Shown: positions 15,817-49,250, numbered from the stretch's first letter. The stretch is DNA of 64,000 bases from an uncultured Prevotella sp. (GCA_900770395.1 CAAGKM010000030.1:423210-487209); one strand, 5' to 3'. The notes: generated by a model not told the origin, from the letters alone. Made by a program: numbers and translations.

Positions 15817-15855
15817 AGTAGGGAAATCTGACAATAACATAATAAAAAACGGAAT

Positions 15856-17884: not shown

Positions 17885-17917
17885 CTTAATTACAGATAAT
17901 AGACTCAAATAAAACAG

Positions 17918-19254: not shown

Positions 19255-19482
19255 AACATCCATACAAAGAATACGAGTCATCCAGATTTTGGGAAATCGT
19301 AAAATCTTCAATAGAAGAATTAGTTGAAAATAATTATATTTAAGTTTTGCGGAAAGAAAACAAAATCGAAACAAGTGAAAACAAAGCAACCAAAAGAAGA
19401 GTAATATATTGGTATTCAATTATAATTGATTGTACTTTTTGATTCCCTTGTAGAAATATAAATTTCCATAAATTACTTATGT

Positions 19483-19505
19483 TTGTTGCGTTTTTGTTAC
19501 GCGGA
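19483..19505. repeat. Left copy of an imperfect direct repeat (candidate attL core)
   Basis: TTTGTTGCGTTTTTGTTACGCGG matches the sequence at 36611-36633 at 19-20 of 23 positions, including an exact 9-mer TTTGTTGCG; about 75 bp upstream of the first integrase. Confidence 0.3.
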
Positions 19506-19520
19506 ACAAATTGTTTTTAG

Positions 19521-19528
19521 TACCTTTG
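19521..19528 (+). promoter_or_regulatory. -7 box TACCTTTG upstream of the first integrase
   Basis: TAnnTTTG, 52 bp before the ATG at 19580. Confidence 0.45.
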
Positions 19529-19579
19529 CAGACGAAAAACAACACCTCCGCCATGCGGCGAGGACAATTTATGTGATTT

Positions 19580-21906: not shown

Positions 21907-21948
21907 TCCGTGTAACTCGACTATACCTCTTTTATAAAAGCGCATATT

Positions 21949-22881: not shown

Positions 22882-23149
22882 GCGGCATCAACGGCATTAT
22901 CCGTATATAATAATTTCCTTGTCCCTGTTCACCCGTCACCGTAACCCGATGGCGGGATTTTTTATGCCCGTCCGTGAACAGGCCTGTTTCTTTCCGCACT
23001 TATAAGTTACCATGTGCGGACAATCCGGGATTATGGAGGGTTTAGAGTTCCATTATACTTCGTTTTAGCCCTATTTATAGTTGCATTTATGCCGTACAAA
23101 GTTCTCTGTTTGTGTCATTTATAGTAATTGCTTCGGGGAAATTCCGCCA

Positions 23150-23157
23150 TACCTTTG
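23150..23157 (+). promoter_or_regulatory. -7 box TACCTTTG upstream of the Xis-like gene
   Basis: TAnnTTTG, 52 bp before the ATG at 23209. Confidence 0.4.
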
Positions 23158-23208
23158 CACTGTCGCCACGACAAAGGCGAAGCAGATTATTCATTAAAAT
23201 ATACGCAC

Positions 23209-23442
23209 ATGACAGAGCAAAGAAAACTTTTAAGCACCAGGGAGGCGGCCGAGTATTGCGGCTTCAAACTTTCCTACTTCCGCAAGCTGATGATGCGCCG
23301 GGCTATCCCGATGTACAAGCCGACGGGCAAACTGTGCTTCTTCAAGAAAGAAGACTTGGACGCTTTCCTCACGGGTGTCCGTATCTCCTCACAGGAAGAA
23401 ATCGCGGAGGAAGCCAACCGCTATATGGCAGGTCGGAAGTAA
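23209..23442 (+). CDS. Small HTH DNA-binding protein, excisionase (Xis)/MerR-like
   Basis: 77 aa from the internal ATG: MTEQRKLLSTREAAEYCGFKLSYFRKLMMRRAIPMYKPTGKLCFFKKEDLDAFL, the typical Bacteroides mobilizable-element excisionase pattern. Confidence 0.55.
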   Translation: MTEQRKLLSTREAAEYCGFKLSYFRKLMMRRAIPMYKPTGKLCFFKKEDLDAFLTGVRISSQEEIAEEANRYMAGRK

Positions 23443-23479
23443 ACAACCTTTTTTATTTACATCAAAAAACAAATGTAGT

Positions 23480-23980
23480 ATGGAACAGAACAGGAACATG
23501 GAACAGGGCGGCACAGCTGCAGCCGTTCCGACAGAGAAGAAGAACGAGAACCGTAAACGTGAAGTAAGCGGTAAGGACGCACAAATCATCCGCGCATTCT
23601 TGGAGAATGTAGGCATCTACGAGGCGGACGCATTACGCGTGAGCATCGCCATTGCCGACGGCAAGGTGTCGGCAGACAACATTTCGGCGGATGACCGCCT
23701 TGCGCTCAACCGCTATCTCAACAGCGGCACGGACAACGACCGTATGACAGCGGACAATGCGCAGGGACATCGGCTGAACCGTGCATTCGGGTTGCTGGAG
23801 CGTGTGGCGGACTTCTGCGAAAAGCAGCAGTTGGTGACGGTAAACAAGGTGCTGCTCTCCGTGGCGGTAAACGCAGATGACATCAGCCATGCCGTATCAA
23901 GCCTTGCCAAGCGTCAGGCATCCGTACAGCCGGCACAGGGAAACGCTGCAAGCAACGGAGCCAACGGAACAGGCAAGTAA
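23480..23980 (+). CDS. Hypothetical protein (166 aa), mobile-element associated
   Basis: ORF from the internal ATG (MEQNRNMEQGG…); low-complexity termini and a central Asp/Ala-rich region. No family assigned. Confidence 0.5.
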   Translation: MEQNRNMEQGGTAAAVPTEKKNENRKREVSGKDAQIIRAFLENVGIYEADALRVSIAIADGKVSADNISADDRLALNRYLNSGTDNDRMTADNAQGHRLNRAFGLLERVADFCEKQQLVTVNKVLLSVAVNADDISHAVSSLAKRQASVQPAQGNAASNGANGTGK

Positions 23981-24251
23981 CCGTATGTGAAAGGTGGAAA
24001 AGGTGAGAAGAAAGCAATAGGTATCTGACATATGTTCATGCAGCCTCCCTTATTTCTTCCCTGCTTTCGGGATTAAACAATCCGGAGGACACCCTGAATG
24101 AGAGCCATACTTTTCTCACCTGACACACGATAACGGTAACATGAGGCCGTGCATGGCACAACGAGAAAGCTGACAGTTATTCCCATGCCGGTTCCTGCAC
24201 GGCTTCATTCTTCTCCAAGCGAAAGTAATATCACATTTATAAAGACAAAGT

Positions 24252-24680
24252 TTGATGAACAAGGAAACATACAGATTCAAGTACCCGGCAGGTGCCGCCT
24301 CGCTGTCATTAGTTTTTTCTCATAAGGCACTGCAATGGCTGCAAGGGACAACGACGGATGATGACGGCAGGGAAACAGTAAACTTCATACTGCTGGGCGA
24401 CCTGCTTGCGAGAATGGCACTTACAGACGGTAAGAGCAAGGAGTTCCGCAGACCGCTCACGCTTTCCGCAGGTCAGGCGCAGTATTCCGAGGAACAGCTT
24501 TCCGCACAGTGGAACATGGGCAGGAAGCGCATACGCAACCTGCTGGACGCACTCACGAAGATGGGGCTTATCGACACCCACCGCTCAAGGGTGGCATCCG
24601 TGATGACCTTCCCGTGCCTGCGTGGGTGGGAAACGGCTGACTGCTGCCGCATATCCAATCCTTTTATACCTCAGGTCTAA
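24252..24680 (+). CDS. Hypothetical protein with a possible winged-helix segment
   Basis: 142 aa; …GRKRIRNLLDALTKMGLIDTHRSR resembles a wHTH recognition helix plus wing. No family assigned. Confidence 0.5.
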   Translation: MMNKETYRFKYPAGAASLSLVFSHKALQWLQGTTTDDDGRETVNFILLGDLLARMALTDGKSKEFRRPLTLSAGQAQYSEEQLSAQWNMGRKRIRNLLDALTKMGLIDTHRSRVASVMTFPCLRGWETADCCRISNPFIPQV

Positions 24681-24793
24681 TTCTTTTATCCATGAACAGA
24701 GGGAAGAGTATGAGCTGAAGAACGGAGGAATAAGAGCCGGACATGAGCCGAAAGACAGCCAAGCTGACAATGACACAGAGGGCATAGCCGCCA

Positions 24794-24931
24794 TTTTGTT
24801 GTACCGCAATACAAAATCTGTCATGTCTCAATATGGGGCAAAAGTGACAGACGGAGTGCTGGAGTGGCATGAAGCGATAGCGTTGAGTTTCGAGGTATGC
24901 CGAGGTATTACCGCCTCCGGACGGTATTACC
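24794..24931. promoter_or_regulatory. Candidate oriT / relaxosome assembly region upstream of the mob genes
   Basis: 7-bp inverted repeat ATTTTGT…ACAAAAT (24794-24817) and direct repeats GGTATTACC at 24904-24912 and 24923-24931, in the 370-bp spacer before the MobA-like gene. Confidence 0.3.
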
Positions 24932-25051
24932 ACGACGCTCTCGCAACGCCCCGGAAGGTCGTTGTCCCAGCCGCTCGCAGGCTCGCACCTTCCCCTCTTT
25001 TAGACACCGTTTCACGATTATTTCAAGGACACCCATTATATCAGGACATAT

Positions 25052-25507
25052 ATGGAACACGAAGATACTTCCATTCAGGAAAATCAGGAATCCGGGCAGG
25101 AGAAGCCCGTTATACGGCGTGACAAGGTGGTAGTCACCAAAGTCACGGAGCAGGAGCTGTTGCGGATTAAAGGCACGGCGGAGCAGTGCGGCATGACACG
25201 CAGCGACTTCATACGGGCAAGGGCACTCGACTACAGACCGAGGAAGCGGCTTTCGGTTACGGAGGTGGACGGCCTCAGGCAGCTTGCAGCATGTCGGACG
25301 GACATGGTGAACTTCGCCAACGCCCTGCACGGGCTGAACGACAACGAGAAGATACGCCTTTTCCGGCATCAGCCCACCATGCTCGAATGGTACGAGAAAG
25401 TGGCGCATATCACAGACCGTGTCACGGACTTTTTGCAGTCCGCGCAGAAGGCGAACAGCTATCCTGCGGAAACAACAGATGAAGAAACAAAGGAGGACGA
25501 GATATGA
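25052..25507 (+). CDS. Relaxosome accessory protein (MobA/MobC-like, Bacteroides-type)
   Basis: 151 aa; …LLRIKGTAEQCGMTRSDFIRARAL… is a ribbon-helix-helix-like region. The stop overlaps the relaxase start (ATGA), as in Bacteroides mobA-mobB pairs. Confidence 0.65.
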   Translation: MEHEDTSIQENQESGQEKPVIRRDKVVVTKVTEQELLRIKGTAEQCGMTRSDFIRARALDYRPRKRLSVTEVDGLRQLAACRTDMVNFANALHGLNDNEKIRLFRHQPTMLEWYEKVAHITDRVTDFLQSAQKANSYPAETTDEETKEDEI

Positions 25508-26763
25508 TAGCCAATGCAAAATCCATCAGCCACGGCATACGGGCGATATTGTATGTGTCGGGCGAGTCGAGGAACAAGAAACATCCGGAGAAGATAACTC
25601 GCATCTGCGACAACTTCATGCCACAGGGCATGGACGCTTCGGGTATCTGGACGGAGATGAAGTTCGCCACGATGAACCGCCCCGACATCAAGAATGATGT
25701 CATCCGCATGGAGATAAGCCCGGCGATGGAGCACACCGGGGACTTCACCGTCGAGGATTGGCGGAAGCTGTGGTGTGACTTCGCGGCGGCTTACGACAAC
25801 CAGACGATACTTGACGATGACGGCAAGGTCATTTCCGTGCCGACCAACATATCGGGCAGCAAGTCCTCCGTGTGGCTACATCTTGAATCCGACAGCGGCA
25901 TACCCCACCTCCATGCCGTAGTGTGCCGGATTGACGAGAACGGGAACATCAACAACGACCACGCCATCCACATCAGGGCACAACGGGCTGCGGAAAAAGT
26001 TGCCCGACAAAGAGGATGGACGACCGCCATGCAGATACACGAAAGCAACATTCCCAAGGTTAGCGCCGACTGCATGGACGCCTTGCGCGAACTGTCCGAA
26101 TGGTCATGGGAAGGTTACAAGGAAAGGCTCGCCGCCAGAGGCTACGAGCTGCATCAGCGCAAGGATAATGAGAAGAACATACGCGGCTATGTGCTCTGCA
26201 AGGGGAACACGAGGTTCAAGGCTTCGGAACTTGGAAAGGGGCGCAACCTGACCGCATCCCATATCATACAGACATGGGAGAAGCTGCATCCCGAAAAGAC
26301 TGAGCAAGCGAGCTTGACACCAAAACAATCTGTTGTAACGACACCGAACTCACCTGCCACAAAAGAACACGCACCACTGTTACAGTCCGAAGTGCAGCAT
26401 AACAATCCAGCTTATGAGGATTACACAGAATGGCAGTCCGACCGCCTGCGCACGGAGTTCGAGCATGACGGCAGGAACTACGACCGCTATATCCCCGGAA
26501 AGGTGCTCGACTGCCTGAATGACGAGTTCGACCACCGGGAATTGGCGAACTGGCAGGCTTTGCAGAATCTGGCTGTGGCCTTTTTTACCCTTGTCGCCTC
26601 TCCTTATGGGGAGATGTCCGGCGGTGGCGGAGGCAGCTCGCAGTCCGACCTCAAATGGGGGCGCGACCCGGAAGAGGACGAGATTGAGTTTGCCCGTCGT
26701 TGTGCACGTGAGGCTTCGCACAGGATTGGCAGACAAATGAAATCAGGAATGAAACGCAAATGA
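25504..26763 (+). CDS. Relaxase/mobilization nuclease (MobB-like, MOBP-type)
   Basis: N-terminal MIANAKSISHGIRAILYV (the catalytic-Tyr region typical of MobA/VirD2-like relaxases) and the His triad …HLHAVVCRID. Confidence 0.85.
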   Translation: MIANAKSISHGIRAILYVSGESRNKKHPEKITRICDNFMPQGMDASGIWTEMKFATMNRPDIKNDVIRMEISPAMEHTGDFTVEDWRKLWCDFAAAYDNQTILDDDGKVISVPTNISGSKSSVWLHLESDSGIPHLHAVVCRIDENGNINNDHAIHIRAQRAAEKVARQRGWTTAMQIHESNIPKVSADCMDALRELSEWSWEGYKERLAARGYELHQRKDNEKNIRGYVLCKGNTRFKASELGKGRNLTASHIIQTWEKLHPEKTEQASLTPKQSVVTTPNSPATKEHAPLLQSEVQHNNPAYEDYTEWQSDRLRTEFEHDGRNYDRYIPGKVLDCLNDEFDHRELANWQALQNLAVAFFTLVASPYGEMSGGGGGSSQSDLKWGRDPEEDEIEFARRCAREASHRIGRQMKSGMKRK

Positions 26764-26781
26764 CAAACCTAAAAAACATCA

Positions 26782-27324
26782 GTGACAATGAAACAACCCG
26801 ATACGTCCGCCCTACGGGAGCGGCTTGCCAATTATACACCCGGACAGGAGCTGGAGCAGGACAAGCAGGAACTTGAAGGACTGCTTCAGGAAGTAAGTGA
26901 CCAAATTTTTGCCATGCGCAATTTGCTCAAGGAAATCAATGAACTCAAGGAAGAACTGCACGACATACACGGAAGCCTGATGCACACTGCCAAACGGGAG
27001 CGAGTGGCTTTTAATGCTTTGAACGCGGCCAAGGACAGTGCGGACAACATTGTGAATGGTATCTGCAACGCCATTGTAAAAGCGGAACGGCATACCGTCA
27101 TACAAGCCACAGTCGGCACTGACGAACTGGAAAAGGTAAGCCAATGTTCTGCAGCCCACATCAAGGCGGAGGAAGAACTTTTGGAAAGGCACAGAAACAA
27201 GTTAGCCAGACACCTCCGTGACAATGAAGGTGTCTGGTTGTCCGACCGCTGGCTCAAGATTCTGTTCGCAGTGCAGTTGCTTTGTTATCTTGCGGTGGCA
27301 TTGTGGGTAATGCTGAAAGGATAA
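26782..27324 (+). CDS. Coiled-coil protein with a C-terminal transmembrane anchor, hypothetical
   Basis: 180 aa with heptad-like Leu/Glu/Lys-rich coiled coil and a hydrophobic C-terminal helix (ILFAVQLLCYLAVALWVMLKG). Confidence 0.5.
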   Translation: MTMKQPDTSALRERLANYTPGQELEQDKQELEGLLQEVSDQIFAMRNLLKEINELKEELHDIHGSLMHTAKRERVAFNALNAAKDSADNIVNGICNAIVKAERHTVIQATVGTDELEKVSQCSAAHIKAEEELLERHRNKLARHLRDNEGVWLSDRWLKILFAVQLLCYLAVALWVMLKG

Positions 27325-27409
27325 ACTGATTGTTCGCAATCTCCTTTTCGAGGGGACAAGGCTATCTGTATATTTCGACAAACAACAGCTATATGTTGTT
27401 ATTCGACAA

Positions 27410-28081
27410 TCATATTTTGTTCCCCAACCGATAAGCCTTGTCTCCATAATCCGTGTTGCGCACCGAACCTGCCGTCCAGACACCGGGTGCGAAAACTTCG
27501 CCTACACTTTCCCAGCCGAGGTAATCCATCATTGTGCGATAGTGCTGGAGCATGGGCTCTGCATCGCTTTTAGCAGTGTTCGCGTATGTCATCAGATAGG
27601 CAGCTTTCTTGTAATGCCCCTTGATTTTCCCGTTGATGGCATAGAAACGGTCAATTACCTTTTTCATCTGCGCGGAAATACCAAAATAATACATAGGAGT
27701 AGCGAAAACCACCATATCCGCCTCAATAAGATGCGGACGGAGTTCGCTGAAATCATCATCGAAGATGCACGGTCCGTCCATACCGCAACGGTTGCACGCA
27801 CGGCACGGCTCCACCTGCTTGAAAGCACAGTCGAAACGATAGACCTCGTGACCTTTCTCTTGTGCCCCTTTTATGAACTGGTTCGCGAGAAAAGCGGAAT
27901 TTCCGTTACGGCGGGGGCTACCTGTGAGAACTACTATTTTCATTTTATCTTGTTTTGATTCATTAGAAACTGACGGGTTATCATCAACACTCATTGCCGC
28001 CAAGCTATGAATAGCACTGCCCGCAAGGAGTGTGCTGCTTACGGCAAATACAGATTTCTTTATAAAATCCCTTCTTTTCAT
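27410..28081 (-). CDS. Twin-arginine (TAT) signal flavoprotein, NADPH-dependent FMN reductase / iron-sulfur flavoprotein-like
   Basis: MKRRDFIKKSVFAVSSTLLAGSAIHSLAA is a TAT-type signal. Flavodoxin-like fold (KIVVLTGSPRRNGNS…) and a Cys cluster (CRACNRCGMDGPC). Confidence 0.7.
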   Translation of the reverse strand: MKRRDFIKKSVFAVSSTLLAGSAIHSLAAMSVDDNPSVSNESKQDKMKIVVLTGSPRRNGNSAFLANQFIKGAQEKGHEVYRFDCAFKQVEPCRACNRCGMDGPCIFDDDFSELRPHLIEADMVVFATPMYYFGISAQMKKVIDRFYAINGKIKGHYKKAAYLMTYANTAKSDAEPMLQHYRTMMDYLGWESVGEVFAPGVWTAGSVRNTDYGDKAYRLGNKI

Positions 28082-28111
28082 ACGTTTATCTTTTGCCCGA
28101 TAGAACTTTAT

Positions 28112-28966
28112 TTAATTTTCCGGCTGAAAATCCTTGATGATGTTTAATGCTTTCAGTGCGGCAGGGAAGCCGATATAAGGCATACACTGGATGACGGCAG
28201 CCGTCACTCTCTCCTTACTGTTGCCGGCCCTCAGATTGGCGCGAAGATGTGCGTGAAGCTGCGGCTCAGCTCCGATTACGGTCAGAACGCAGTAAGTCAG
28301 CAATTCGCGAGTCTGCGTATCGAGACCGCTTCGTGTCTGAAAATCGCCGAAATGAACCTCCGTCAGAAAGCGCGCAACCTTTTCACCCATGCCGCCGGGT
28401 ACGTCCTTCAATGCCTCTTTCATCCGGTCTCCGTAAAGCGGATATTGGATTTCATGCCCTTTCTCGTAACGGTTCCCTTCCGTAACGGTTGCCTGTGTTT
28501 CAAGCGGCACTTTAATTCCGCGCTCCGTGAAGGCTTCATTAACCGCAGTCATCGCATTAAGGACTTTTGGGAAGCCGATGATGGGAGCGCACTGGTAAAC
28601 TGCCTCGCGCAACTCTATGGGAGTGACCCCGACATTGAGGGCGGCTCCGGCATGTCCTTTCAGTTGGGGTAATTGCTGCATGGTGGCGAGGCATACGCAG
28701 GTAATCATCTCACGTGTCTTGATGTCCAAATCTCCTGTGCGGAACACCTCTCCGAAAATATATTTTTGGAGAATATCCATAATTTCCGGGTCTGTACCGC
28801 CTCCATTAAGTGCCTCACCGCCGAACAAAACCTTAAAGTTTTCCTTGCACAATTCTATCCTGTCCATCGTATTCTCTTTTTTTATGTCATTCTCTGCCGT
28901 TTGTGCTGTAGCCGAAGCAAATCCGAAGACGGAGAGAACTATGATTGCCAATATGTTTTTTCTCAT
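28112..28966 (-). CDS. Carboxymuconolactone decarboxylase (CMD/AhpD-like) family protein, tandem CMD domains, Sec signal
   Basis: Two AhpD-like repeats (…IGFPKVLNAMTAV… / …IGFPAALKALNII…) and an N-terminal signal (MRKNILAIIVLSVFGFASATAQ). Confidence 0.8.
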   Translation of the reverse strand: MRKNILAIIVLSVFGFASATAQTAENDIKKENTMDRIELCKENFKVLFGGEALNGGGTDPEIMDILQKYIFGEVFRTGDLDIKTREMITCVCLATMQQLPQLKGHAGAALNVGVTPIELREAVYQCAPIIGFPKVLNAMTAVNEAFTERGIKVPLETQATVTEGNRYEKGHEIQYPLYGDRMKEALKDVPGGMGEKVARFLTEVHFGDFQTRSGLDTQTRELLTYCVLTVIGAEPQLHAHLRANLRAGNSKERVTAAVIQCMPYIGFPAALKALNIIKDFQPEN

Positions 28967-28989
28967 TTCGATTGTAATTTTTTGGATTA

Positions 28990-29832
28990 TTATTCTGTTA
29001 CTGCCCGAACGGAATGACCGATATAGCGGCGGGTATTGCGGTTCCCGAATTGCTCTTTTGAATAGAAATAAAGATAATAAGCGAAATCAGAATCCGATGG
29101 ATATAATGTTCCCGTCCAATAGCAGCCGCGCTGTCTGACCTGATTGGATATTTTGTCACCTGTTCTCGATGCTCCTGCCGGGAAAAATATCGAGTTTCCG
29201 TTAGGACCTGTTGCCCTGCGTCCGTTTATACCATTCAACTCCGTCCATTCCCAAGTGCAGTTGTCAACCAATTCCTGCACCTCTTCCTGTGTAGGCATCC
29301 TCCAATTTTCGCCCCACTGCACGTAAGCAATATCGTATTCGGTGCCACAGATGTTTTCAGGAGGAGTATCTGAGGGATAATCATTGAAATCCGTAGTTTG
29401 TTTTTCTCCGGTCGGGTCTGCCCATCCATATAGTCCGCCGTATTCTTCAGGAGTTGCGGCTCCGATGTTCCAAGCAGCCCATTTTACGCTCAAACCTAAA
29501 TCCACGGCTTCGGCAATACTTACCGTATTGGCCTCAAATTGTGCTTGTAGGCTTACATCGTGAGCAGGCATTCTGAACGAGTATATAGATTCAGATGAAA
29601 CCATTTCTTCGGCTTCATACCATCCGGCAAATATATAGCCGTCATCTGCCGTAGCGGTCACGGTCACTTCTTCCTCCGGAATATAAGTTGACTTTTCCGT
29701 GGTTACCGTACCACCTTCTGTAGAGGAAATGGTAAGTGTGTAAGAAACCGGTTCATTAACATCATCACTACAAGAGCAGAGACAAAAAAGGACTACAAGT
29801 AATGCGAATATCGTTATCTTCAAATTTTTCAT
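28990..29832 (-). CDS. Lipoprotein with a Fibrobacter-succinogenes-major-paralogous (Fib_succ_major) domain
   Basis: Lipoprotein signal (…CLCSCSDD), …GENWRMPTQEEVQELV… and a C-terminal …YIGHSVRAVTE, matching the FISUMP pattern (GWRLPT…SVRCV). Confidence 0.65.
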   Translation of the reverse strand: MKNLKITIFALLVVLFCLCSCSDDVNEPVSYTLTISSTEGGTVTTEKSTYIPEEEVTVTATADDGYIFAGWYEAEEMVSSESIYSFRMPAHDVSLQAQFEANTVSIAEAVDLGLSVKWAAWNIGAATPEEYGGLYGWADPTGEKQTTDFNDYPSDTPPENICGTEYDIAYVQWGENWRMPTQEEVQELVDNCTWEWTELNGINGRRATGPNGNSIFFPAGASRTGDKISNQVRQRGCYWTGTLYPSDSDFAYYLYFYSKEQFGNRNTRRYIGHSVRAVTE

Positions 29833-29843
29833 CTTTGATTATT

Positions 29844-30857
29844 TTATTCATTAAACAACTCACGGGCATTCTCGGAAAAGAACCGCTCCGTGTATGGAGC
29901 CAACTCCTTGTCGGCGGCAAACTGTTCACGCATCCGTTTCAGATTCCCCTGCAACACATTGTCCGGCATATACGGATAATCCGAGCCGTAGAGAATATGT
30001 TCAGGAGTGGTGATGGTCAGCATCATCTTCACGATTTCAGGACTTGCACCTCCGGCAAGGTCATAATACAGACGCGAAAGGTTAGCCTCCCAGTCAATCT
30101 GCCCCATAAACCCTTTGGCAAGCATTGCCGGGTGAACGGCTTTCATACGGGGTATAGCCATAGGTAGAAATGATCCGCAATGCGGTACAACGACTTTGAC
30201 ATTGGGATTCTGCGCCAACACATTGCGAGAAATCATATTGATGACCGCACGGGTTGTTTCAGCCGGATATTCATAGACTGCAAGCGGAGCGGTGGCAATG
30301 ATACCGTCATTGACCGGAGTGGGCTTGTGCGGATGGATGATAATGACTGCATTTCTGTCGTTCAGCACCTTCATCAACGGGTCAAGCGCCTTGTCACCGA
30401 GATATTGCCCCCGGCTGTTTGTCGCCAGTTTCACTCCGTCCGCTCCCAATGTATCGAGCGCATAAACAGCTTCCTCTATGGCCGCATTGACATCCGGCAG
30501 GGGCAACGCAGCGCAGAACTTGAATTTCCCCGGATACTCCTTCTTCAAACGGGCGCAATACTCATTGTATTCACGGATAACCCGTCTGCTTTCCTCCGTA
30601 TCCCCAAACCACGGCTGAGGAGCGGGCATAGTCAGCACCGAACATTCTATCCCGGCATTCTGCATAAAAGCGATATGCGATTCCACATTCCAAGCCGGCA
30701 ACGGGAATGTCTCCTCCATTGCGGCATCGTGTTTTTCCAGCACAGCCATATATTCGGGCAGGATGTTATGGCAATGCACATCAATGGTCTGCCCGAATAC
30801 CGAAGGGCTGATGAAGAGAGCGGACATAGCCATTAGCAAAATCAGTTTTCTTCTCAT
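29844..30857 (-). CDS. Amidohydrolase-2 family (ACMSD-like metal-dependent hydrolase/decarboxylase), Sec signal
   Basis: Signal MRRKLILLMAMSALFISPSVFGQ. IDVHCHN… metal-binding start typical of the amidohydrolase_2 TIM barrel. Confidence 0.75.
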   Translation of the reverse strand: MRRKLILLMAMSALFISPSVFGQTIDVHCHNILPEYMAVLEKHDAAMEETFPLPAWNVESHIAFMQNAGIECSVLTMPAPQPWFGDTEESRRVIREYNEYCARLKKEYPGKFKFCAALPLPDVNAAIEEAVYALDTLGADGVKLATNSRGQYLGDKALDPLMKVLNDRNAVIIIHPHKPTPVNDGIIATAPLAVYEYPAETTRAVINMISRNVLAQNPNVKVVVPHCGSFLPMAIPRMKAVHPAMLAKGFMGQIDWEANLSRLYYDLAGGASPEIVKMMLTITTPEHILYGSDYPYMPDNVLQGNLKRMREQFAADKELAPYTERFFSENARELFNE

Positions 30858-30863
30858 ATCGGA

Positions 30864-31355
30864 TTATTTACCGCTGTTAATAGTTTCAAGCCACTCCGAA
30901 AACTGCCTTTCAGACAAAGGTCTGTTCAGCAATTTTCCGGAACACCAGTCTATTTCAGGATAGGCTTTGCGCAGATTTTTCTCACAGTTGGCAATGCCGC
31001 TGCCGCCCGAAGTGGCAAACGGTACCACTTTCTTACCTGCAAGGTTGTGGCTTTCAATGAACGTGTTGATGATAGTCGGTGCGATGTACCACCATACGGG
31101 GAAACCGATGAACACCACATCATACTTCTCCATACCGGACACCCGCCCAGCAATGGCAGGACGGGAAGTCACATCACGCATCTCCACGGAACTACGGCTC
31201 TGGCGATTATTCCAGTTCAAGTCTGCATCCGTGTAGGGTTGCTCCGGTACTATTTCATGTAAATCGGCGTTAGCCACGGCCGCCAGTTCACGGGCAGCCT
31301 CCCTTGTCGTACCGCTACAAGAGAAATAGGCGACCAATATTTTTTTACTACTCAT
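30864..31355 (-). CDS. Flavodoxin (Flavodoxin_4-like), cytoplasmic
   Basis: [20 protein letters not shown]…[11 protein letters not shown]…; the likely start is the internal MSSKK (the track ORF runs to 31394). Confidence 0.75.
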
Positions 31356-31372
31356 GTCGTTCTTCTTTATAA

Positions 31373-32317
31373 TTACACCATAGGCATTTCCCAAGAGCCT
31401 CTTGTATCGACTCCGGTACTCTCTGCCGCATTTTCCAGAGTGTTCATCTCCTCCTCAGTCAGCGTCACCTTTATAGCTTCCAACGCATCCTGAACCTGAA
31501 CAGGCTTAGTCACGCCGATAATCGGGGTCGTGCCTTTGCCAATCGCCCAAGCCAAGGCAACCTGTGCCGGTGTGATGCCGTATTTCTCGCCGACAGTACG
31601 CATAACGGCAATGAGTTTTTCAATCTGAGGCAACAACGGATTATAGGTGTCACCACGTTGGCTTCCGGCAGGCAGCGGGTGGGCGGTGTCATATTTTCCG
31701 CTTAACGCGCCTTGCTCCAGCACCATGTAAGCCCAGAAGTCAATGCCGTTTTCCTTGCAATAGTCAAGGATGCCGGCTTTCTCCGATGAACGGTAAAGGA
31801 GGCTGAAGTGATTCTGCACTGCGGAGATATGCACACCCTCTTTGGAAAGGATTTCTTCAGCACGCTTGATCTGTGTAAGGTTGTGGTTGGAGACGCCTAC
31901 ACGTCTTACCTTGCCGCTTTTCACGAGGTCGGCGAGGAACGGAGTCCATTTCTCCACATCAGCAGGATTGTGAATCCAGTAAATGTCGATATAGTCTGTG
32001 CCGAATCGTTCGAGGCTGCCGTTGAGCATATCTTCCACGGGATTGGCAGACTCACCGGCAATCTGAGGAGTGAACTTCGTTGAGATAAGCACATCCTCGC
32101 GATTGCACTCTTTGGTAAATGCGGCGAGTACGTTTTCCGAAGCGCCCATGCCGTACACCACGGCTGAATCCCACAGGTTCAGCCCTCCGGCCATTGCCGC
32201 ATCGAATACGGGCTTCAGTTCATTCACGCCGAGGTTGTTCCCGAATACCTGATCGCCTCCGGCGAATCCTGCGCCCCACGACCATGTGCCTAATGCTATT
32301 GACGGTTGATTTTTCAT
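31373..32317 (-). CDS. Aldo/keto reductase
   Basis: LGTWSWG…, conserved AKR catalytic tetrad context, [12 protein letters not shown]. Confidence 0.9.
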
Positions 32318-32363
32318 TTTTGTTTCTCCTTATTGATTTTATTGTTATTCTGATTTTGATTGT

Positions 32364-33002
32364 TTAACGTATGAAATTCGTCATAGTATGCTGTTCATGC
32401 ACCGGGAACTCTATGCCGTGTTCACGCCCTGTTGCGATGCACTTCAGCAACCATGCCATGTTTCTTGCAAGTGTGCGCATGGTCTGTAGCCCCTCAACAT
32501 CCCGGCGGATTTCATCCGGTGTATTCCCGTGGACTACGTTCCAGTATTGCGACGGTACGATAGGCATATTGCAGTCGGTCATATATTTGTTCATCTGATC
32601 AAGTGCAGCCGTTGCACCGCTACGGCGACAAGTTGCTATTGCAGCGGCAGGTTTCCCGGCAAAGTGGTCGCCATTGTACTCGTCAATCAGAAACACCCTG
32701 TCAAGGAACGAGGTCACGGCACCGCTTGCAGCCGCATAGTGTACGGGAGTGCCGAACACGAAACCGTCATACTCATCCATTATCTTCACGAACTCGTTGA
32801 CTTTGTCGTTTCGGAAGCAGCTACGCTTACCCACGCACGCCCCACAGCCGATACATCCGGCTAACGGCTGATTGCCAACCCAGAATATCGTCGATTCGAT
32901 TCCCTCGCTTTTGAGCGTGTCGGCAATTTCCGACAAAGCGGTGTGAACACATCCGTCCTTGTGAGGGCTTCCGTTTACCAATAATACTTTCAATGTGTTC
33001 AT
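32364..33002 (-). CDS. Flavodoxin-like NAD(P)H-dependent FMN reductase / iron-sulfur flavoprotein
   Basis: KVLLVNGSPHKDGCVHTAL… with a Cys cluster (CIGCGACVGKRSC) and FGTPVHYAAASG. Confidence 0.75.
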   Translation of the reverse strand: MNTLKVLLVNGSPHKDGCVHTALSEIADTLKSEGIESTIFWVGNQPLAGCIGCGACVGKRSCFRNDKVNEFVKIMDEYDGFVFGTPVHYAAASGAVTSFLDRVFLIDEYNGDHFAGKPAAAIATCRRSGATAALDQMNKYMTDCNMPIVPSQYWNVVHGNTPDEIRRDVEGLQTMRTLARNMAWLLKCIATGREHGIEFPVHEQHTMTNFIR

Positions 33003-33015
33003 ATTCTTGGCCTTG

Positions 33016-33204
33016 TCATTTGTTCATATCAGGCAGGAGGACACCTCCGACTCCCACGTTCTCAGGTTCGTTCTCCTTGATGAAGACGAAGATTACATTT
33101 TCGGGAAGCCCGGTAATGCGTGATGTCGATTCAGTGACTTCTTTGACCAACTGAGCTTTCTTCTCCTTGCTCATCTTGACCAGTTCCATTGTTATTGAAG
33201 GCAT
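33016..33204 (-). CDS. 4-oxalocrotonate tautomerase family protein
   Basis: 62 aa beginning MPSITMELVKMSKEKKAQLVKEVT (Pro1 catalytic residue). Confidence 0.7.
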   Translation of the reverse strand: MPSITMELVKMSKEKKAQLVKEVTESTSRITGLPENVIFVFIKENEPENVGVGGVLLPDMNK

Positions 33205-33238
33205 GATATTTTCTTTTTTTCAGGTTAAACGATTTGTG

Positions 33239-33802
33239 TTACAGGTTCTCTTCACGGAATTTCTTGCCGAATGAAGTGCATTTGCCTATCATCTCGCCGG
33301 TACGCAGGTAAGAATAGGTGGGCATCTCGAAGAGGACGGGCTTCAGTTTGTTGTAGTCCACCTTACCGGCCTCGTTGAGCATATCTTCCTCGACGTATGT
33401 GTTGGATATCTTGCAGATGAAGTTGTCGAAAGTCTCCGTTTCATAGTTCTCCACGGCTTCACACTCCATAATCAAAGGGCTGTCCTCTATTACGGGAGTG
33501 CCGGCTTCTCCGGGATGCCATGCGAAAACCTGCGACTTGTCAACTTTTGCACCGCTTGTAATACCTACATAGTCAGCACGGGGAAGCAGAGCTTCATCAA
33601 CAATGTTCACGGAAAGATGCCCGGTCATTCTAACACCAAGGTTCGTGTGATGTGCTTTGTGCAGACTGACAAGAATGCGATCGTGCCCGATGATGCCTAT
33701 ATGACCGGCAAGCAACCAGGTCGGCTTGTCATCTATCATTGTCCCCACAACAACTGCCGGTGTGGGATAAAGGGCTAATACAGATCCGATGTTCTTTTTC
33801 AT
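33239..33802 (-). CDS. Flavin reductase-like (FMN-binding split-barrel) protein
   Basis: …LALYPTPAVVVGT… and the split-barrel pattern. Probable start MKKNIG at 33802; the track ORF extends to 33841. Confidence 0.7.
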   Translation of the reverse strand: MKKNIGSVLALYPTPAVVVGTMIDDKPTWLLAGHIGIIGHDRILVSLHKAHHTNLGVRMTGHLSVNIVDEALLPRADYVGITSGAKVDKSQVFAWHPGEAGTPVIEDSPLIMECEAVENYETETFDNFICKISNTYVEEDMLNEAGKVDYNKLKPVLFEMPTYSYLRTGEMIGKCTSFGKKFREENL

Positions 33803-33921
33803 TTTTCTTGAAGTATTATGCTGTTTATAAATCTGTTGCAAAGATAGCGTGCTTGCTGCAAATAGACTGTATCCGTATTACGGACGATAGTAACTGCATT
33901 ACGGTATCTTCTGCGCGTGTG

Positions 33922-34410
33922 TTATTTTACCGCTTCGGAATATTCCTCATCCGTTACAGGATTGAGCCAGGTATTCTTGTTGGTCTGCGGATTACATTCG
34001 ATAGCCAGATGTGAGAACCAGCTGTCGGGAGTCGCCCCGTGCCAATGCACTACGTCAGGTGCTATTTCGACCACATCACCGGCTTTAAGCCGTCTTGCGG
34101 GCTTGCCCTTTTCCTGATAATAACCCTCGCCACCGACACATACAAGAATCTGTCCGCCTGTATGACTGTGCCAGTTGTTGCGGCATCTCGGCTCGAACGT
34201 CACATTCGATACAGGCACATTCAGTTCCTTCATAGAAGTCAGCGGGGCCAGCCATGAGCGGCCGCTGAAATATTGCTCGTATGCGACATTCGGTTTGCCT
34301 GTGGGGAATGCGCTGATTTCCGGTACTTCTGTTTCCATATTCTTATTGCTGTTACAGCCGGCAGCCAGTATAACAATCGCTGCGGAGGCCAATAGTTTTG
34401 AGATTCTCAT
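33922..34410 (-). CDS. Cupin-domain lipoprotein
   Basis: Lipoprotein signal (…ILAAGCNS); cupin motifs (HSHTGGQILVCVGGEG…HWHGA). Confidence 0.7.
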   Translation of the reverse strand: MRISKLLASAAIVILAAGCNSNKNMETEVPEISAFPTGKPNVAYEQYFSGRSWLAPLTSMKELNVPVSNVTFEPRCRNNWHSHTGGQILVCVGGEGYYQEKGKPARRLKAGDVVEIAPDVVHWHGATPDSWFSHLAIECNPQTNKNTWLNPVTDEEYSEAVK

Positions 34411-34435
34411 ATTGTGAGTTGATGTGTTAATTCAA

Positions 34436-35239
34436 TTAGCGGTTTATCATTATTTTCTTTGATACCGTATGTGTGCCGGAACTGACCTGCGCCAGATAGA
34501 TGCCTGATGTAAGTGCGGAGGTTTCAATTAAGTTTCGGGATGATTCCAACACCTTGCTGCCGGAAAGGTTGTAGAGCGCAACTCTATCAAACTCACCATC
34601 TATATAAATCGTGCCGGATGCGACATTGATATTCACGTCTTTGTCACTCACAACAGATTCTACGGCACTTGCAAGCGTATTGTAGTCAATCTGCTCCAAC
34701 CAGTTGGCAATTAAAGAATGACTGTTGGATGTTTGAGCGGAACGAATCCAAAGACTTGGTGTTACGAAGTCTCCATTCGGTATAAGACGGTGTGCATCGG
34801 CTTCCACTCCGCTTATCCCACTGCTCGCGCTCGAAACGATAAGTCCTATTTTCTTGCCTGCCATTTTTGCCCCGTTATGGAAAAGGAATGTCTGCATCGG
34901 CGCGGCCATATTGCTCCACCATAACGGTGCGGCCACAATTACCATATCATACTCATCGAAATTCACATCCACCGGCTTGATTCTGGGATAGGAAGCCGCA
35001 TCATCGGGATTGTTGCGGATCGCCGAGATTAACGCGCTGCCAATGGCATAATTGTTGGCGGCATAGTCCAGCCCTTCTTCCGAGGGTTCTATTCTGACCA
35101 TATCCGCTCCCGTCTGCGCCTGCAAATCGGTCGCGATGGTGTGGACATTGTTTGTAAAGCTGTAGTAAACTATCAGCGTTTTCGCGTTGATGGTGATTGC
35201 TGTAAGTGCAACGACCAATGTCAGGATTAACTTTTTCAT
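34436..35239 (-). CDS. Exported flavodoxin-like (Flavodoxin_4) protein with a T9SS C-terminal sorting domain
   Basis: Sec signal (MKKLILTLVVALTAITINA). Flavodoxin_4-like core (TLIVYYS…VIVAAPLWWSNM…), paralogous to 30864-31355. C-terminal about 75 aa (…VALYNLSGSKVLE…GIYLAQVSSGTHTVSKKIMINR) looks like a T9SS type-A CTD. Confidence 0.65.
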   Translation of the reverse strand: MKKLILTLVVALTAITINAKTLIVYYSFTNNVHTIATDLQAQTGADMVRIEPSEEGLDYAANNYAIGSALISAIRNNPDDAASYPRIKPVDVNFDEYDMVIVAAPLWWSNMAAPMQTFLFHNGAKMAGKKIGLIVSSASSGISGVEADAHRLIPNGDFVTPSLWIRSAQTSNSHSLIANWLEQIDYNTLASAVESVVSDKDVNINVASGTIYIDGEFDRVALYNLSGSKVLESSRNLIETSALTSGIYLAQVSSGTHTVSKKIMINR

Positions 35240-35481
35240 TTTCGTAAACCTTTTTAATGTTGATACTTATTTTTCTGGTGCAAAGGTAAGGGACTTTATT
35301 GGTAATGGCTGTATCTGCATTACGGACAAGAGTGATTATATTACGGAATGTTATCGTCATACACAAATCTCTTACAACCAAGCGTGTATGCCATATATGA
35401 AATTTGTACGAATCTTACGGATATTTGTAACTGTATTACGGATTTCATACTCTGCCATGCGTAATTCCCATCTAAAATAGC

Positions 35482-35489
35482 TACCTTTG
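35482..35489 (+). promoter_or_regulatory. -7 box TACCTTTG for the AraC regulator (divergent from the cargo operon)
   Basis: TAnnTTTG, 24 bp before the ATG at 35513. Confidence 0.45.
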
Positions 35490-35512
35490 CACAAAAAAAT
35501 TGAAATGCTTTT

Positions 35513-36412
35513 ATGAAAGAGGTAATAAAGGTCAGCACAATCGACCAATATAATAAGCTGTTCGGGCTGGAAACCTTGCATCCGTTGGTTTCCGTTGTCG
35601 ATTTGTCGAAAGCCCCGATATGGCCGGATCATTTTCGCTTCAATTATGGGGTATATTGCATCTATCTGAAAGATGCGAAATGCGGAACTATCCGATACGG
35701 ACGGCAGAACTACGATTATCAGGAAGGTAGCATTGTCGCCTTTGCTCCTGGACAAATCGCCAATGTCGATATGGAGCGGGGTATGAAACCGTCGGGTCTG
35801 GGCGTACTATTCCACCCGGATTTACTTCGTGGGACACCGCTTGGCAGAGAAATCGACAGGTATTCGTTCTTCTCATACGATGTGAACGAGGCACTGCACG
35901 TTTCGGAAAGAGAAAGGAAAATCCTCGTGGACTGTATTGACAAAATCGCTTATGAAATGGAACATTCGATAGACCAGCATAGCAAGCGGTTGATTGCAAC
36001 AAATATCGAATTGTTCCTTGACTACTGTATGCGGTTTTATGACCGCCAGTTCATCACGCGCTCAGAAGTTCACCACGATGTACTTGTGAAATTTGAGCGG
36101 CTGTTGGACGAGTATTTCAAAAACGAGCATTTACGCAAAAACGGTTTACCGCAAGTGCGATACTTTGCCGATAAAGTATGTCTTTCACCTAATTATTTCG
36201 GAGACCTTATAAAGAAAGAAACCGGCATGACCGCTCAGGAATATATTCAAAACAAGATAATCAATGTTTCCAAAGACTGGGTCGCAAACACTAATTTGAC
36301 CGTCAGTCAGATAGCATACGAACTTGGATTCCAGTACTCCCAACATTTCAGCCGTGTCTTTAAGAAAAGCGTGGGATGCACGCCTTTGGAGTATAGGAGA
36401 GCACAGGCATAG
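35513..36412 (+). CDS. AraC-family transcriptional regulator
   Basis: C-terminal double HTH (…QIAYELGFQYSQHFSRVFKKSVGCTPLEYRR) and an N-terminal cupin-like ligand domain. Confidence 0.9.
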   Translation: MKEVIKVSTIDQYNKLFGLETLHPLVSVVDLSKAPIWPDHFRFNYGVYCIYLKDAKCGTIRYGRQNYDYQEGSIVAFAPGQIANVDMERGMKPSGLGVLFHPDLLRGTPLGREIDRYSFFSYDVNEALHVSERERKILVDCIDKIAYEMEHSIDQHSKRLIATNIELFLDYCMRFYDRQFITRSEVHHDVLVKFERLLDEYFKNEHLRKNGLPQVRYFADKVCLSPNYFGDLIKKETGMTAQEYIQNKIINVSKDWVANTNLTVSQIAYELGFQYSQHFSRVFKKSVGCTPLEYRRAQA

Positions 36413-36420
36413 GGGAACTA

Positions 36421-36457
36421 AAGGAGGATGTGTTTTCATTTGCACATCCTCCTTTTA
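36421..36457 (+). terminator. Rho-independent terminator after the AraC gene
   Basis: Perfect 12-bp stem AAGGAGGATGTG / CACATCCTCCTT with a 10-nt loop, followed by TTTTAT. Confidence 0.55.
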
Positions 36458-36610
36458 TATCACATATTCATTCCCTTTGGTCGGTTCTCAACACTGTAAT
36501 TGTAGGTCTGCAGTTGTCTATAACATAATTAGATCCAACCATTTTAATTGCTATAAAGTTTTCAAGTCATTAATCTCGTTGTCACATCACAGTTTATATT
36601 TTCCTATTTT

Positions 36611-36633
36611 TTTGTTGCGAATTTGTTGCGCTA
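36611..36633. repeat. Right copy of the imperfect direct repeat (candidate attR core)
   Basis: TTTGTTGCGAATTTGTTGCGCTA; see 19483-19505. Confidence 0.3.
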
Positions 36634-36831
36634 CAATTCTTTAATTCTGTAATATAACTGAATATCAATACATTGTGATTTATACAAAATCAATGATATT
36701 GAACTTCAAACTCCGATAGAATATGTCGTAGGTTATATTTGTAAAAACATCTCATTAACAGATATGCCTGTTAAAGACATCTTACACGAGCTTTATTCCA
36801 ACAAAATCACAGAAGATGAAGCACCGGAATT

Positions 36832-37227
36832 ATGAAACTGACCGATAAACTATTCTGGAATTGGCGCACACTTATCGTAGTGTTGATTATCTCACTACTG
36901 ATTGCGATTGTCGTGTTTTTCAAAAGATGTATGATAACTGATACTGCTGATATAGAGCGTGTGGGAAATGAAATTATCGTAATGATTGATGATTTTCAAA
37001 AAATGAATAACAGGCTACCAATCGGACTTAATGAGATAGGAACTCCTTTCGAGGAAATTAATGAGACCTATGAATACAAGGGCTATATTTTCTATTACGA
37101 ACCGAGAAAAGACGGCTTTTATTGGCTGACCGTCACATTCGGTCCGGATGAGAATTATTGTTACAATTCTAAAAATAAGTCTTGGATATGGGGTTGTGAT
37201 TCTGATAGAGTAGACGCGTACAAATAG
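36832..37227 (+). CDS. Hypothetical N-terminally anchored protein (131 aa)
   Basis: AT-rich gene with an N-terminal TM helix (LIVVLIISLLIAIVVFF); its first 27 bp are duplicated at 37253. Confidence 0.4.
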   Translation: MKLTDKLFWNWRTLIVVLIISLLIAIVVFFKRCMITDTADIERVGNEIIVMIDDFQKMNNRLPIGLNEIGTPFEEINETYEYKGYIFYYEPRKDGFYWLTVTFGPDENYCYNSKNKSWIWGCDSDRVDAYK

Positions 37228-37662
37228 TATTTTCTTGAAAATGATTCTGGTGATGAGACTGACCGATAAACGATTTCGGATATATGAGAGTTGTAACGAG
37301 ATTATAGGCTGATTCCACCTCGTCCTTTCTCAATCTTTCAGTCATACCGACCTTCCGCGACATCGCTAACCTCATTGAGTGTGTGGCGATGTTTTATTTC
37401 ATCAAAGGACTGTCGGTGTTCCGCATAGTCACAGAGCCATGTGCCGACCGCTTTCTGCTGCTCGGTGGTCTCGCCGTAGCTCTGCATAACACTCTTGATG
37501 TCGGCGGCTTCGGAGGGAGAGAAAATTGACTTGTGCTGTGATTCCCCACCGCTCCTTACACACCTCGCAGAAATGTTGCAACTGTTCCATAGTGGTATCA
37601 TCCTTGAATAGATTCTTTTATGCAGGCACACTGTATAAAAAAGCGATATGCAGAGTCTGTAA

Positions 37663-49247: not shown

Positions 49248-49250
49248 ATT

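Follow-up and report, generated by a model that had tools for sequence, protein, structure and literature searches.

What would an operon of flavodoxin-like proteins, flavin reductases and enzymes of aromatic-compound families, about half of them with export signals, be doing on a mobile element of a Prevotella? The locus that raises this question lies in a 64,000-nt stretch of DNA from an uncultured Prevotella sp. (GCA_900770395.1 CAAGKM010000030.1:423210-487209; the whole stretch that was analysed is called the window below). Here 11 consecutive co-directional minus-strand genes occupy positions 27410-35239, and an AraC-family gene (35513-36412, plus strand, 299 aa) diverges from them over a 273-bp spacer. 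The locus is cargo of an integrative mobilizable element (IME) of ~17.4 kb (19328-36694). The explanation favoured here, with about even confidence and on the strength of sequence features, is that it may encode an inducible, transferable two-compartment defence against redox-active aromatic electrophiles.

An earlier sequence-only reading had recognised the co-directional array and its divergent AraC gene, and gave nine genes with gaps of 3-80 bp. Its own list shows 11 genes, and the gaps, computed with start codons picked by independent gene callers, are 30, 23, 11, 6, 17, 46, 13, 34, 119 and 25 bp from gene 1 to gene 11, a range of 6-119 bp. The most likely starts, as picked by the gene callers, are the ATG at position 31355 for gene 5 (163 aa) and position 33802 for gene 9 (187 aa). 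The 119-bp gap, between genes 9 and 10, contains an internal promoter-like site. Domain calls are from Pfam and NCBIfam profile scans against curated cut-offs, and the families above Pfam cut-offs are FMN_red, CMD (two domains), Amidohydro_2, Flavodoxin_4, Aldo_ket_red, Tautomerase, Flavin_Reduct, Cupin_2, Por_Secre_tail and, in the regulator, HTH_18/HTH_AraC. The Pfam and TIGR04183 assignments proposed earlier were recovered by these scans. The exception is Fib_succ_major for gene 3, for which the TIGR02145 score of 21.7 falls short of the 41.65 cut-off and PF09603 gives no match; a true Fib_succ_major protein is encoded elsewhere in the window (55354-56070, 129 bits).

The products of genes 5-9 lack any export signal and are cytoplasmic. 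Gene 5 (30864-31355) encodes a Flavodoxin_4 protein (268.8 bits; NF005501 242.6, above the cut-off of 198) that has all three flavin mononucleotide (FMN) loops, S/T-x-S/T-G-x-T, PxWW and SGGSG. Gene 6 (31373-32317, 314 aa) encodes an aldo-keto reductase (Aldo_ket_red 213.4 bits), which suggests reduction of aldehydes or ketones. Gene 7 (32364-33002, 212 aa) encodes an FMN reductase (FMN_red 103.9 bits) resembling the iron-sulfur flavoproteins (ISFs), and its Cys50-x2-Cys53-x2-Cys56-x5-Cys62 is the compact ISF motif CX2CX2CX5-7C, as quoted in PMC3164229; a PDB sequence search with this protein found no match. Gene 8 (33016-33204, 62 aa) belongs to the 4-oxalocrotonate tautomerase family (Tautomerase 51.2 bits), starts with MPSI, which places Pro after Met1, and scores 85.6 with the DmpI equivalog NF041920 (cut-off 70). 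The DmpI pathway partners are absent from the operon, and the family suggests a cofactor-independent tautomerase. Gene 9 (33239-33802) encodes a flavoredoxin-like flavin reductase (Flavin_Reduct 58.4 bits), the closest solved relatives of which are the flavoredoxins 3BNK and 2D5M.

The other six products, those of genes 1, 2, 3, 4, 10 and 11, carry N-terminal export signals as judged by hydropathy, motif inspection and conservation across homologs, in agreement with the earlier view that about half of the products are exported. Gene 1 has a twin-arginine translocation (Tat) signal, genes 2 and 4 have Sec signals, genes 3 and 10 encode lipoproteins, and gene 11 combines a Sec signal with the tail of a type IX secretion system (T9SS) substrate. 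The N-termini of the gene 2, 4 and 11 products are positively charged, hydrophobic and classically signal-like, and the signal-bearing extensions are not present in the cytoplasmic solved homologs.

Gene 1 (27410-28081) encodes a second ISF-like FMN reductase (223 aa, FMN_red 88.9 bits). Its N-terminus, MKRRDFIKKSVFAVSSTLLAGSAIHSLAA, starts MKRRDFIKK, and RRxF[LI] is kept within the first 25 residues in 103 of 109 full-length homologs (to ~66% identity), the first 40 residues being otherwise variable. The motif CxxCxxCx5C (C93, C96, C99 and C105) is kept in 108 of the 109. The Pfam and NCBIfam TAT_signal models do not match gene 1. In the AlphaFold model (predicted local distance difference test score, pLDDT, 78) residues 1-42 are disordered, and the rest of the chain has its nearest structural matches among FMN-dependent quinone, azo, indigo and flavone reductases, with template modelling (TM) scores of 0.6-0.7 for the quinone and azo reductases. 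A Tat route would be mechanistically sensible for a protein expected to be laden with cofactors. Like Isf of Methanosarcina thermophila and its counterparts in other anaerobes, the products of genes 1 and 7 have the FMN_red fold and the compact Cys motif, with the cofactors predicted. Known ISFs are cytoplasmic, however, whereas gene 1 has a conserved twin-arginine signal, and no ISF chain in the PDB was found by phmmer at E<=1e-3, the top structural matches being quinone and azo reductases. These similarities suggest that genes 1 and 7 encode two-electron flavin reductases of the quinone/azo type.

The ISF resemblance also raises the possibility that the operon defends an anaerobe against O2 and peroxide stress, with ISFs, a flavoredoxin and an AhpD-like CMD protein reducing O2 and H2O2 in cytoplasm and periplasm. 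The compact Cys motif in genes 1 and 7 and the flavoredoxin homology of gene 9 fit this, the CMD family includes AhpD, and ISFs have been linked to the oxidative-stress responses of anaerobes (PMC3164229). The CMD protein itself points elsewhere. Gene 2 (28112-28966) encodes a tandem CMD protein of 284 aa (two CMD domains, 120.8 bits), and an AhpD-like peroxidase role was rejected for it, since the CxxC motif is absent from its CMD domains and it matches PcaC-like proteins instead. Nor is there a peroxidase, rubrerythrin or superoxide reductase; as regulator there is an AraC-type protein, its N-terminal domain of the ligand type, in place of an OxyR or PerR; and the decarboxylase, tautomerase, aldo-keto reductase and cupin would have no obvious role. 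Oxidative-stress defence is accordingly regarded as improbable.

The PcaC-like character of gene 2 is relevant to another explanation, the catabolism of an aromatic carbon source by a protocatechuate or meta-cleavage-like route. Gene 4 (29844-30857, 337 aa) belongs to the ACMSD/LigW decarboxylase branch of Amidohydro_2 (100.6 bits) and has a 22-residue N-terminal extension that is not in its closest solved relative, 2F6K; IDCase, LigW, ACMSD and gamma-resorcylate decarboxylases follow. This suggests a decarboxylase of the type that acts non-oxidatively on aromatic acids. A PcaC-like CMD protein, a DmpI-type tautomerase, an ACMSD/LigW-type amidohydrolase and a cupin are families typical of such catabolism. 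The rest of a pathway is not encoded: there is no confidently assigned ring-cleaving dioxygenase and no hydratase, aldolase, dehydrogenase, CoA-transferase, thiolase or transporter. The host is anaerobic, the enzymes are split across compartments, and gene 2 scores 103 with the PcaC equivalog TIGR02425, under the cut-off of 155.7. It is therefore highly unlikely that the operon serves growth on aromatic compounds.

Two of the envelope proteins are lipoproteins. Gene 3 (28990-29832) encodes a 280-aa protein with an InlB B-repeat (Flg_new_2 67.8 bits) and a weak FISUMP/Lcl_C-like C-terminal domain, Lcl_C as well as TIGR02145 remaining below cut-off; a PDB sequence search found no match. Its lipobox Cys is followed by SDDVNE, and acidic residues after the +1 Cys resemble the surface-export signal of Bacteroidetes lipoproteins. 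Gene 10 (33922-34410) encodes a cupin of the TM1010/Mn-cupin type (162 aa, Cupin_2 34.4 bits) with the lipobox LAAGC. It matches 2F4P at E 7e-35, the nearest structure being that of the uncharacterised TM1010, and scores 124.3 with the (R)-mandelonitrile lyase equivalog NF049940, under the cut-off of 140. The family suggests a metal cupin.

Gene 11 (34436-35239, 267 aa) encodes a signal peptide, a divergent Flavodoxin_4 domain (52.2 bits) and a type A T9SS C-terminal domain. The secretion tail scores above both of its models (TIGR04183, 30.5 against a cut-off of 23; Por_Secre_tail PF18962, 30.6 against 27). The protein is modelled at pLDDT 82.6, and residues 20-190 superpose on 4ICI, 4J8P and 3KLB, which are Bacteroides Flavodoxin_4 structures (TMt 0.75-0.79), while the tail, residues 203-265, aligns structurally with the C-terminal T9SS domains of NucA (8GLK_D) and RgpB (7PQ4). 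The host is probably able to process this tail, since the T9SS genes for PorU (Peptidase_C25, 1208 aa) and PorV are in the window, at 12190-17028, directly upstream of ispF and the insertion site of the element. Full-length homologs of gene 11 form a large family, and the best 120 are ~57-97% identical and nearly all ~267 aa long. The motifs YYSFTNNV, PLWWSNMAAP and VSSASSGISG are invariant in the family; within the phosphate loop YYSFTNNV, no variation is seen at Y25, Y26, S27, T29 and N31 and almost none at N30 and V32, and F28 is the consensus residue. Compared with the canonical FMN loop S/T-x-S/T-G-x-T, the family has Gly changed to Asn and Thr to Val, but PLWW and SSASSG are kept.

The exported flavodoxin-fold protein and iron-sulfur flavoprotein paralog are what an extracytoplasmic electron-transfer module might contain, in which cytoplasmic reductases would feed Tat- and T9SS-exported flavoproteins that reduce an external acceptor. 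The sequence-only reading had preferred a mixed electron-transfer module to a simple detoxification cluster, on the premise that flavodoxins and FMN reductases canonically belong in the cytoplasm. Taken strictly, that premise is outdated: in Firmicutes, extracytosolic Flavodoxin_4 and FMN_red proteins that are flavinylated by ApbE serve in electron transfer (Huang et al., mSystems 2024, PMC11334425). The present operon resembles the Firmicutes system in having Flavodoxin_4/FMN_red folds outside the cytoplasm and in forming accessory redox gene clusters. It differs in its Bacteroidales host, in the use of a T9SS tail (gene 11) or of a Tat signal with an iron-sulfur motif (gene 1), and in the absence nearby of the [S/T]GA[S/T] insertion, apbE, DUF4405 or another membrane electron carrier. 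None of the exported proteins has the ApbE flavinylation motif [S/T]GA[S/T] or the post-strand-1 insertion, and there is no apbE gene among the annotated window genes. Flavinylation of the exported flavoproteins by ApbE was rejected for want of the motif.

Electron transfer through this operon meets a further difficulty in the inner membrane. Internal transmembrane segments are absent from all 11 proteins, and no cytochrome, quinol-oxidising or polyferredoxin protein is encoded in the operon. With no membrane electron conduit, electron transfer across the inner membrane is unsupported for this operon, and half of the exported proteins are of cofactor-independent decarboxylase or isomerase types. 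Relatives come closer to such a system. At one locus (L087, 7811-14372) a homolog of gene 11 (61% identical) stands with two Tat-signal aldo-keto reductases, a 492-aa Fer4_5 polyferredoxin, TatA/TatC, an AraC regulator and a Flavodoxin_4-esterase fusion, and this locus resembles a true periplasmic redox chain more closely than the window operon does. A secretion-tailed DUF362 protein and a zinc-dependent alcohol dehydrogenase (Zn-ADH) with a signal peptide are encoded in relatives as well. For the window operon itself, an electron-transfer module is considered unlikely.

The case for an inducible aromatic-compound defence relies in part on the regulator and its probable sites. The AraC/XylS-family regulator has a C-terminal double helix-turn-helix, with HTH_18 (73.9 bits) and HTH_AraC (65.2 bits) both above cut-off. 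Its PDB matches, the DNA-binding domains of AraC, XylR, SoxS and ToxT, cover residues 204-298 only. The N-terminal ~200 aa form an unclassified domain, and no equivalog model is reached. A 15-nt repeat, CCGTAATRCRGWTAC, has four exact copies on the minus strand and no exact copy elsewhere. Reduced to CCGTAA-N15-CCGTAA, with half-sites 21 bp apart, it forms three exact pairs (35441-35415, 35346-35320 and 33904-33878), where 0.17 are expected per 64 kb.

Two of these pairs end exactly 22 nt upstream of Bacteroidetes-type TAnnTTTG -7 boxes, which were read by eye. At the P1 promoter region (35281-35346, minus strand), CCGTAATATAATCAC-N6-CCGTAATGCAGATAC (35346-35311) is followed after 22 nt by TACCTTTG (35288-35281), 41 nt before the gene 11 ATG. 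At the internal P2 region (33839-33904, minus strand), CCGTAATGCAGTTAC-N6-CCGTAATACGGATAC (33904-33869) is followed after 22 nt by TATCTTTG (33846-33839), 36 nt before the gene 9 ATG. This exact placement suggests two promoters that need an activator, with P1 serving genes 11-10 and P2 serving genes 9-1. Counted from the -7 box of the AraC gene (35482-35489, plus strand), the distal pair (35406-35441, minus strand), CCGTAATACAGTTAC-N6-CCGTAAGATTCGTAC, is 40 nt upstream. This box, as read from the sequence, is also TACCTTTG and is part, with the P1 box, of inverted repeat I6. The distal pair is possibly an autoregulatory site. A scan for sigma-70 promoters and terminators gave counts not above those of shuffles, such a scan being ill-suited to Bacteroidetes promoters. 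Rfam models, run over the whole window, detect no FMN riboswitch or other element at the operon; the only hit is an L13-Bacteroidia leader (RF03127, 68 bits) at 8293-8369 (plus strand), upstream of rplM (8446-8907).

Conservation of the pairs was followed in 80 loci from species-representative genomes that encode regulator relatives. All relatives of at least 69% identity keep at least one pair at ~-97 and/or ~-191 from the ATG, with a spacer that varies, and many remoter ones have a pair with one mismatch near -105. The P1 pair stands at ~-191 from the AraC ATG in L004-L009 and L099-L103, the distal pair at ~-97 in L004, L008, L010-L012 and L099-L103, and the P2 pair is kept in position in L004 and L099-L103; the last five, which are further near-identical operons, retain all three pairs. 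From their position and conservation we infer that the linked regulator has its operator in these repeats. The AraC linkage of the operon, proposed earlier from adjacency, thus gains from conserved operator-like repeats. The remoter members of the AraC subfamily (22 loci, L010-L076) usually occur in tandem with a second paralog, 35-43% identical and directly downstream.

The operon could instead be a collage of separately useful accessory genes that hitch-hike on mobile elements behind one promoter region, with no common substrate or pathway. The neighbourhood search shows that the operon is not scattered in relatives: its synteny recurs in at least 12 independent loci (L001-L009, L099-L103), and all listed regulator relatives of at least 74% identity adjoin versions of it (L004-L009). 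Genes 11, 10, 9, 8, 7, 6, 5, 4 and 2 form a stable core, found in the same order at 85-97% identity in many contexts and sharing the conserved operator sites. Sub-modules recur at ~60-70% identity, and a pair of the gene 1/gene 2 type (Tat-ISF and double CMD) is found at ~70% identity in unrelated loci (L096-L098). Around the core the content is fluid. Among close, syntenic relatives gene 3 is confined to the window lineage, and the distal end is variable, being occupied by gene 1 or by an aldo-keto reductase. A 187-aa Flavodoxin_4 protein, the signal-peptide Zn-ADH and the DUF362 protein with a secretion tail are variable extras. Sister operons have, between genes 11 and 10, a gene for a 635-aa predicted surface lipoprotein (L004 7004-8911; L099-L102) with CSEDD after the lipobox, an InlB B-repeat, seven RCC1 repeats and a C-terminal Flavodoxin_4 domain. 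The gain and loss of this lipoprotein, Zn-ADH, DUF362 protein and extra Flavodoxin_4, with the lineage-specific gene 3, is what speaks for a collage; given the stable core, the shared operator sites and the recurring sub-modules, it is very unlikely.

Remoter relatives of the regulator provide some hints to function. Exported Flavodoxin_4 lipoproteins are adjacent in 14 loci and signal-peptide CMD-cupin fusions in 11, the latter suggesting that the gene 2 and gene 10 types are functionally tied. Other accessory genes in relatives encode dienelactone-hydrolase-like esterases and Hexapep acetyltransferases. AraC relatives below ~65% identity mostly flank unrelated genes and are therefore uninformative on the function of the operon.

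Transferability, the other part of the favoured explanation, follows from the carrier. As had been proposed, the operon is carried on an IME, now delimited by its ends, a second site, an empty site and further contexts. A copy of the element, 99.9% identical, is present in another metagenomic contig, where other genes flank it on either side, and the homology begins at window position 19328 (L093) and stops at 36694 (L001). The empty site is seen in four contigs (L089-L092) with flanks 96-97% identical, where ispF is directly beside an ATP-binding cassette (ABC) transporter gene, which indicates that the whole of 17562-37662 was inserted in this strain. The 17562-19327 and 36695-37662 segments around the element are low-GC (~41%), strain-specific DNA, with a DKNYY-family gene (17918-19078) on one side and paralogous small open reading frames (ORFs) at 36832-37280 on the other (their starts, 36832-36859 and 37253-37280, are 86% identical). 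Because 17562-37662 is absent in the 96-97% identical relatives, the element appears to have landed in an already variable spot. A longer element that includes the DKNYY gene, based on a 9-bp AAAATCAAT match at 17598, was rejected, since the L093 homology starts at 19328. No clear target-site duplication was found.

The element encodes two tandem tyrosine integrases (19580-20764 and 20761-21906, plus strand; Phage_integrase, Arm-DNA-bind_5 and Phage_int_SAM_5 in both) and a small HTH_17 protein. The mobilization module (25052-27324, plus strand) consists of a NikA-like MobA (25052-25507, 43.7 bits), a relaxase (25504-26763) with a weak match to the Relaxase nuclease domain, and a Mob-associated ORF (26782-27324). 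There are no conjugation-pore genes in the element. It is like the Bacteroidales IMEs (NBU/Tn4555-like; MbpABC mobilization, pLV22a) in its integrase(s), HTH_17 gene, NikA-like protein, relaxase and third Mob protein, its lack of a pore, its defined ends and its several insertion sites. It differs from them in having two tandem integrases, in carrying a 9-kb redox/decarboxylase cargo rather than an antibiotic-resistance gene, and in a relaxase that matches MbpB far below cut-off (91 bits against 400). The two integrase genes are paralogs, with 39-nt 5' stretches (19634-19672 and 20782-20820) that are 74% identical, and the second overlaps the first by 4 bp; this suggests a duplicated or two-subunit recombinase arrangement.

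The horizontal transferability that had been proposed for the operon is well supported by the second insertion site, the empty site and the further contexts. The housekeeping proteins of the window group with proteins of Prevotella metagenome-assembled genomes (MAGs), and regulator, amidohydrolase and gene 1 proteins of 90% identity or more are attributed to Phocaeicola massiliensis and Bacteroides xylanisolvens. The index of a metagenome collection lists a 97%-identical regulator in 347 blocks, and this regulator stands beside a near-identical operon in at least five more contexts, some of which adjoin transfer genes of the CTn type (TraM, DUF4138, DUF1896, topoisomerase). AraC relatives 56-96% identical are also found on contigs (L004, L019, L025, L069 and L077) binned as MAGs of Oscillospiraceae, Anaerovoracaceae, Acutalibacteraceae, Clostridium and Lachnospiraceae. 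These Bacteroidales-type genes are most likely mis-binned mobile DNA, although they may reflect cross-phylum transfer.

Taken with the AraC-type activator and the accessory genes of relatives, the protein families make defence against, or transformation of, aromatic compounds the most economical explanation of the operon. In this proposal the regulator would bind CCGTAA-N15-CCGTAA direct repeats one helical double-turn apart, which would abut the -33 region of both promoters, and a small molecule sensed by its N-terminal domain would turn both transcription units on. The cytoplasmic set would then comprise the flavoredoxin-like reductase, the ISF-like reductase, the Flavodoxin_4 protein, the aldo-keto reductase and the isomerase of the 4-oxalocrotonate-tautomerase type. 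The envelope set would comprise the Tat-exported ISF paralog, the Sec-exported double-CMD protein and ACMSD/LigW-type decarboxylase, the cupin as a periplasmic lipoprotein, a surface lipoprotein and the T9SS-exported flavodoxin-fold protein. Aromatic electrophiles would be reduced and transformed on both sides of the cytoplasmic membrane. Quinones, phenolic acids and aldehydes derived from the diet or from plants may be the substrates, with nitro or azo compounds as a further possibility; the quinone, nitro/azo and lactone classes suggested earlier would likewise follow from family membership.

The proposed regulation resembles that by MarA, SoxS, Rob and other AraC/XylS activators in the DNA-binding domain and in ~21-bp-spaced direct repeats that abut the promoter, and the MarA/SoxS/Rob regulons likewise include flavodoxin-like proteins and quinone-type reductases among their targets. 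Here, in contrast, the regulator is full-length, its putative target is a local operon and not a chromosomal regulon, and the promoters have Bacteroidetes -7/-33 elements. In B. subtilis, the MhqR, YodB and CatR regulons provide inducible azoreductase and quinone-reductase flavoenzymes, with cupin/dioxygenase-like and hydrolase-like proteins, against aromatic electrophiles. Orthology aside, the present operon is alike in kind, as a probably inducible set of flavoenzymes, cupin and hydrolase-like proteins. The B. subtilis regulators are of the MarR/DUF24 type where this one is an AraC protein, and those regulons are all cytoplasmic and non-mobile.

Several observations weigh against an aromatic-electrophile defence. 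No characterised ortholog supports it, and every specific equivalog model but DmpI scores below its cut-off. The operon has no membrane protein and hence encodes no source of reducing power for the exported proteins, and an extracytoplasmic supply of NAD(P)H is not to be expected. The altered loop (SFTNNV) and the lack of an ApbE motif mean that gene 11 may hold no flavin. The export calls rest on motif and conservation, with no trained predictor behind them, and no Tat genes are seen in the 64-kb window. Since the content at the operon edges varies between copies, a loose toolbox would fit as well as a pathway.

All of the protein families are known already, as are AraC-controlled redox/xenobiotic clusters and Bacteroidales mobilizable elements. 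Full-text literature searches turned up neither this cluster nor any flavodoxin secreted by the T9SS, and the papers that name CMD and AraC in Bacteroides are unrelated lists. The T9SS-tailed flavodoxin-fold and Tat-signal ISF families appear undescribed in the searchable literature, as does the linkage of both with an exported CMD protein, cupin and decarboxylase under a conserved operator. More generally, flavodoxin-fold proteins that Bacteroidales export without flavinylation appear to be undescribed. It is conceivable, though doubtful, that these families represent an undescribed Bacteroidales class of extracytoplasmic flavoproteins without ApbE attachment, a redox system spread on mobilizable and conjugative elements. 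Such a class would include T9SS-exported or surface-lipoprotein flavodoxin-folds and Tat ISFs, with exported CMD, cupin and decarboxylase proteins, in the periplasm and at the cell surface of gut genera.

Two other regions of the window stand apart from the element. The 47399-60570 region is an extracytoplasmic function (ECF) sigma/FecR anti-sigma/SusC-SusD-like locus that includes the Fib_succ_major protein mentioned above, a Lnb_N-domain protein and two thioredoxin/AhpC-TSA-fold proteins (58386-60570), and it might represent a different type of envelope redox locus. At 3057-5550 (minus strand) there are three tandem genes for FKBP-type peptidyl-prolyl isomerases (FKBP_N and FKBP_C).

If the products are ordinary detoxification enzymes, the locus is a well-delimited but unremarkable accessory island. 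Its operator/promoter layout and the defined element make it a ready experimental handle. The operon is widespread, as the 347 metagenome blocks with a 97%-identical regulator show, and it moves between families, since its host here is Prevotella and products of 90% identity or more are attributed to Phocaeicola and Bacteroides. Should the exported flavodoxin-fold and iron-sulfur flavoproteins be active, the operon would confer a transferable capacity to transform redox-active dietary, host or drug molecules before they pass the inner membrane, and this would have a bearing on polyphenol and drug metabolism in the microbiome.

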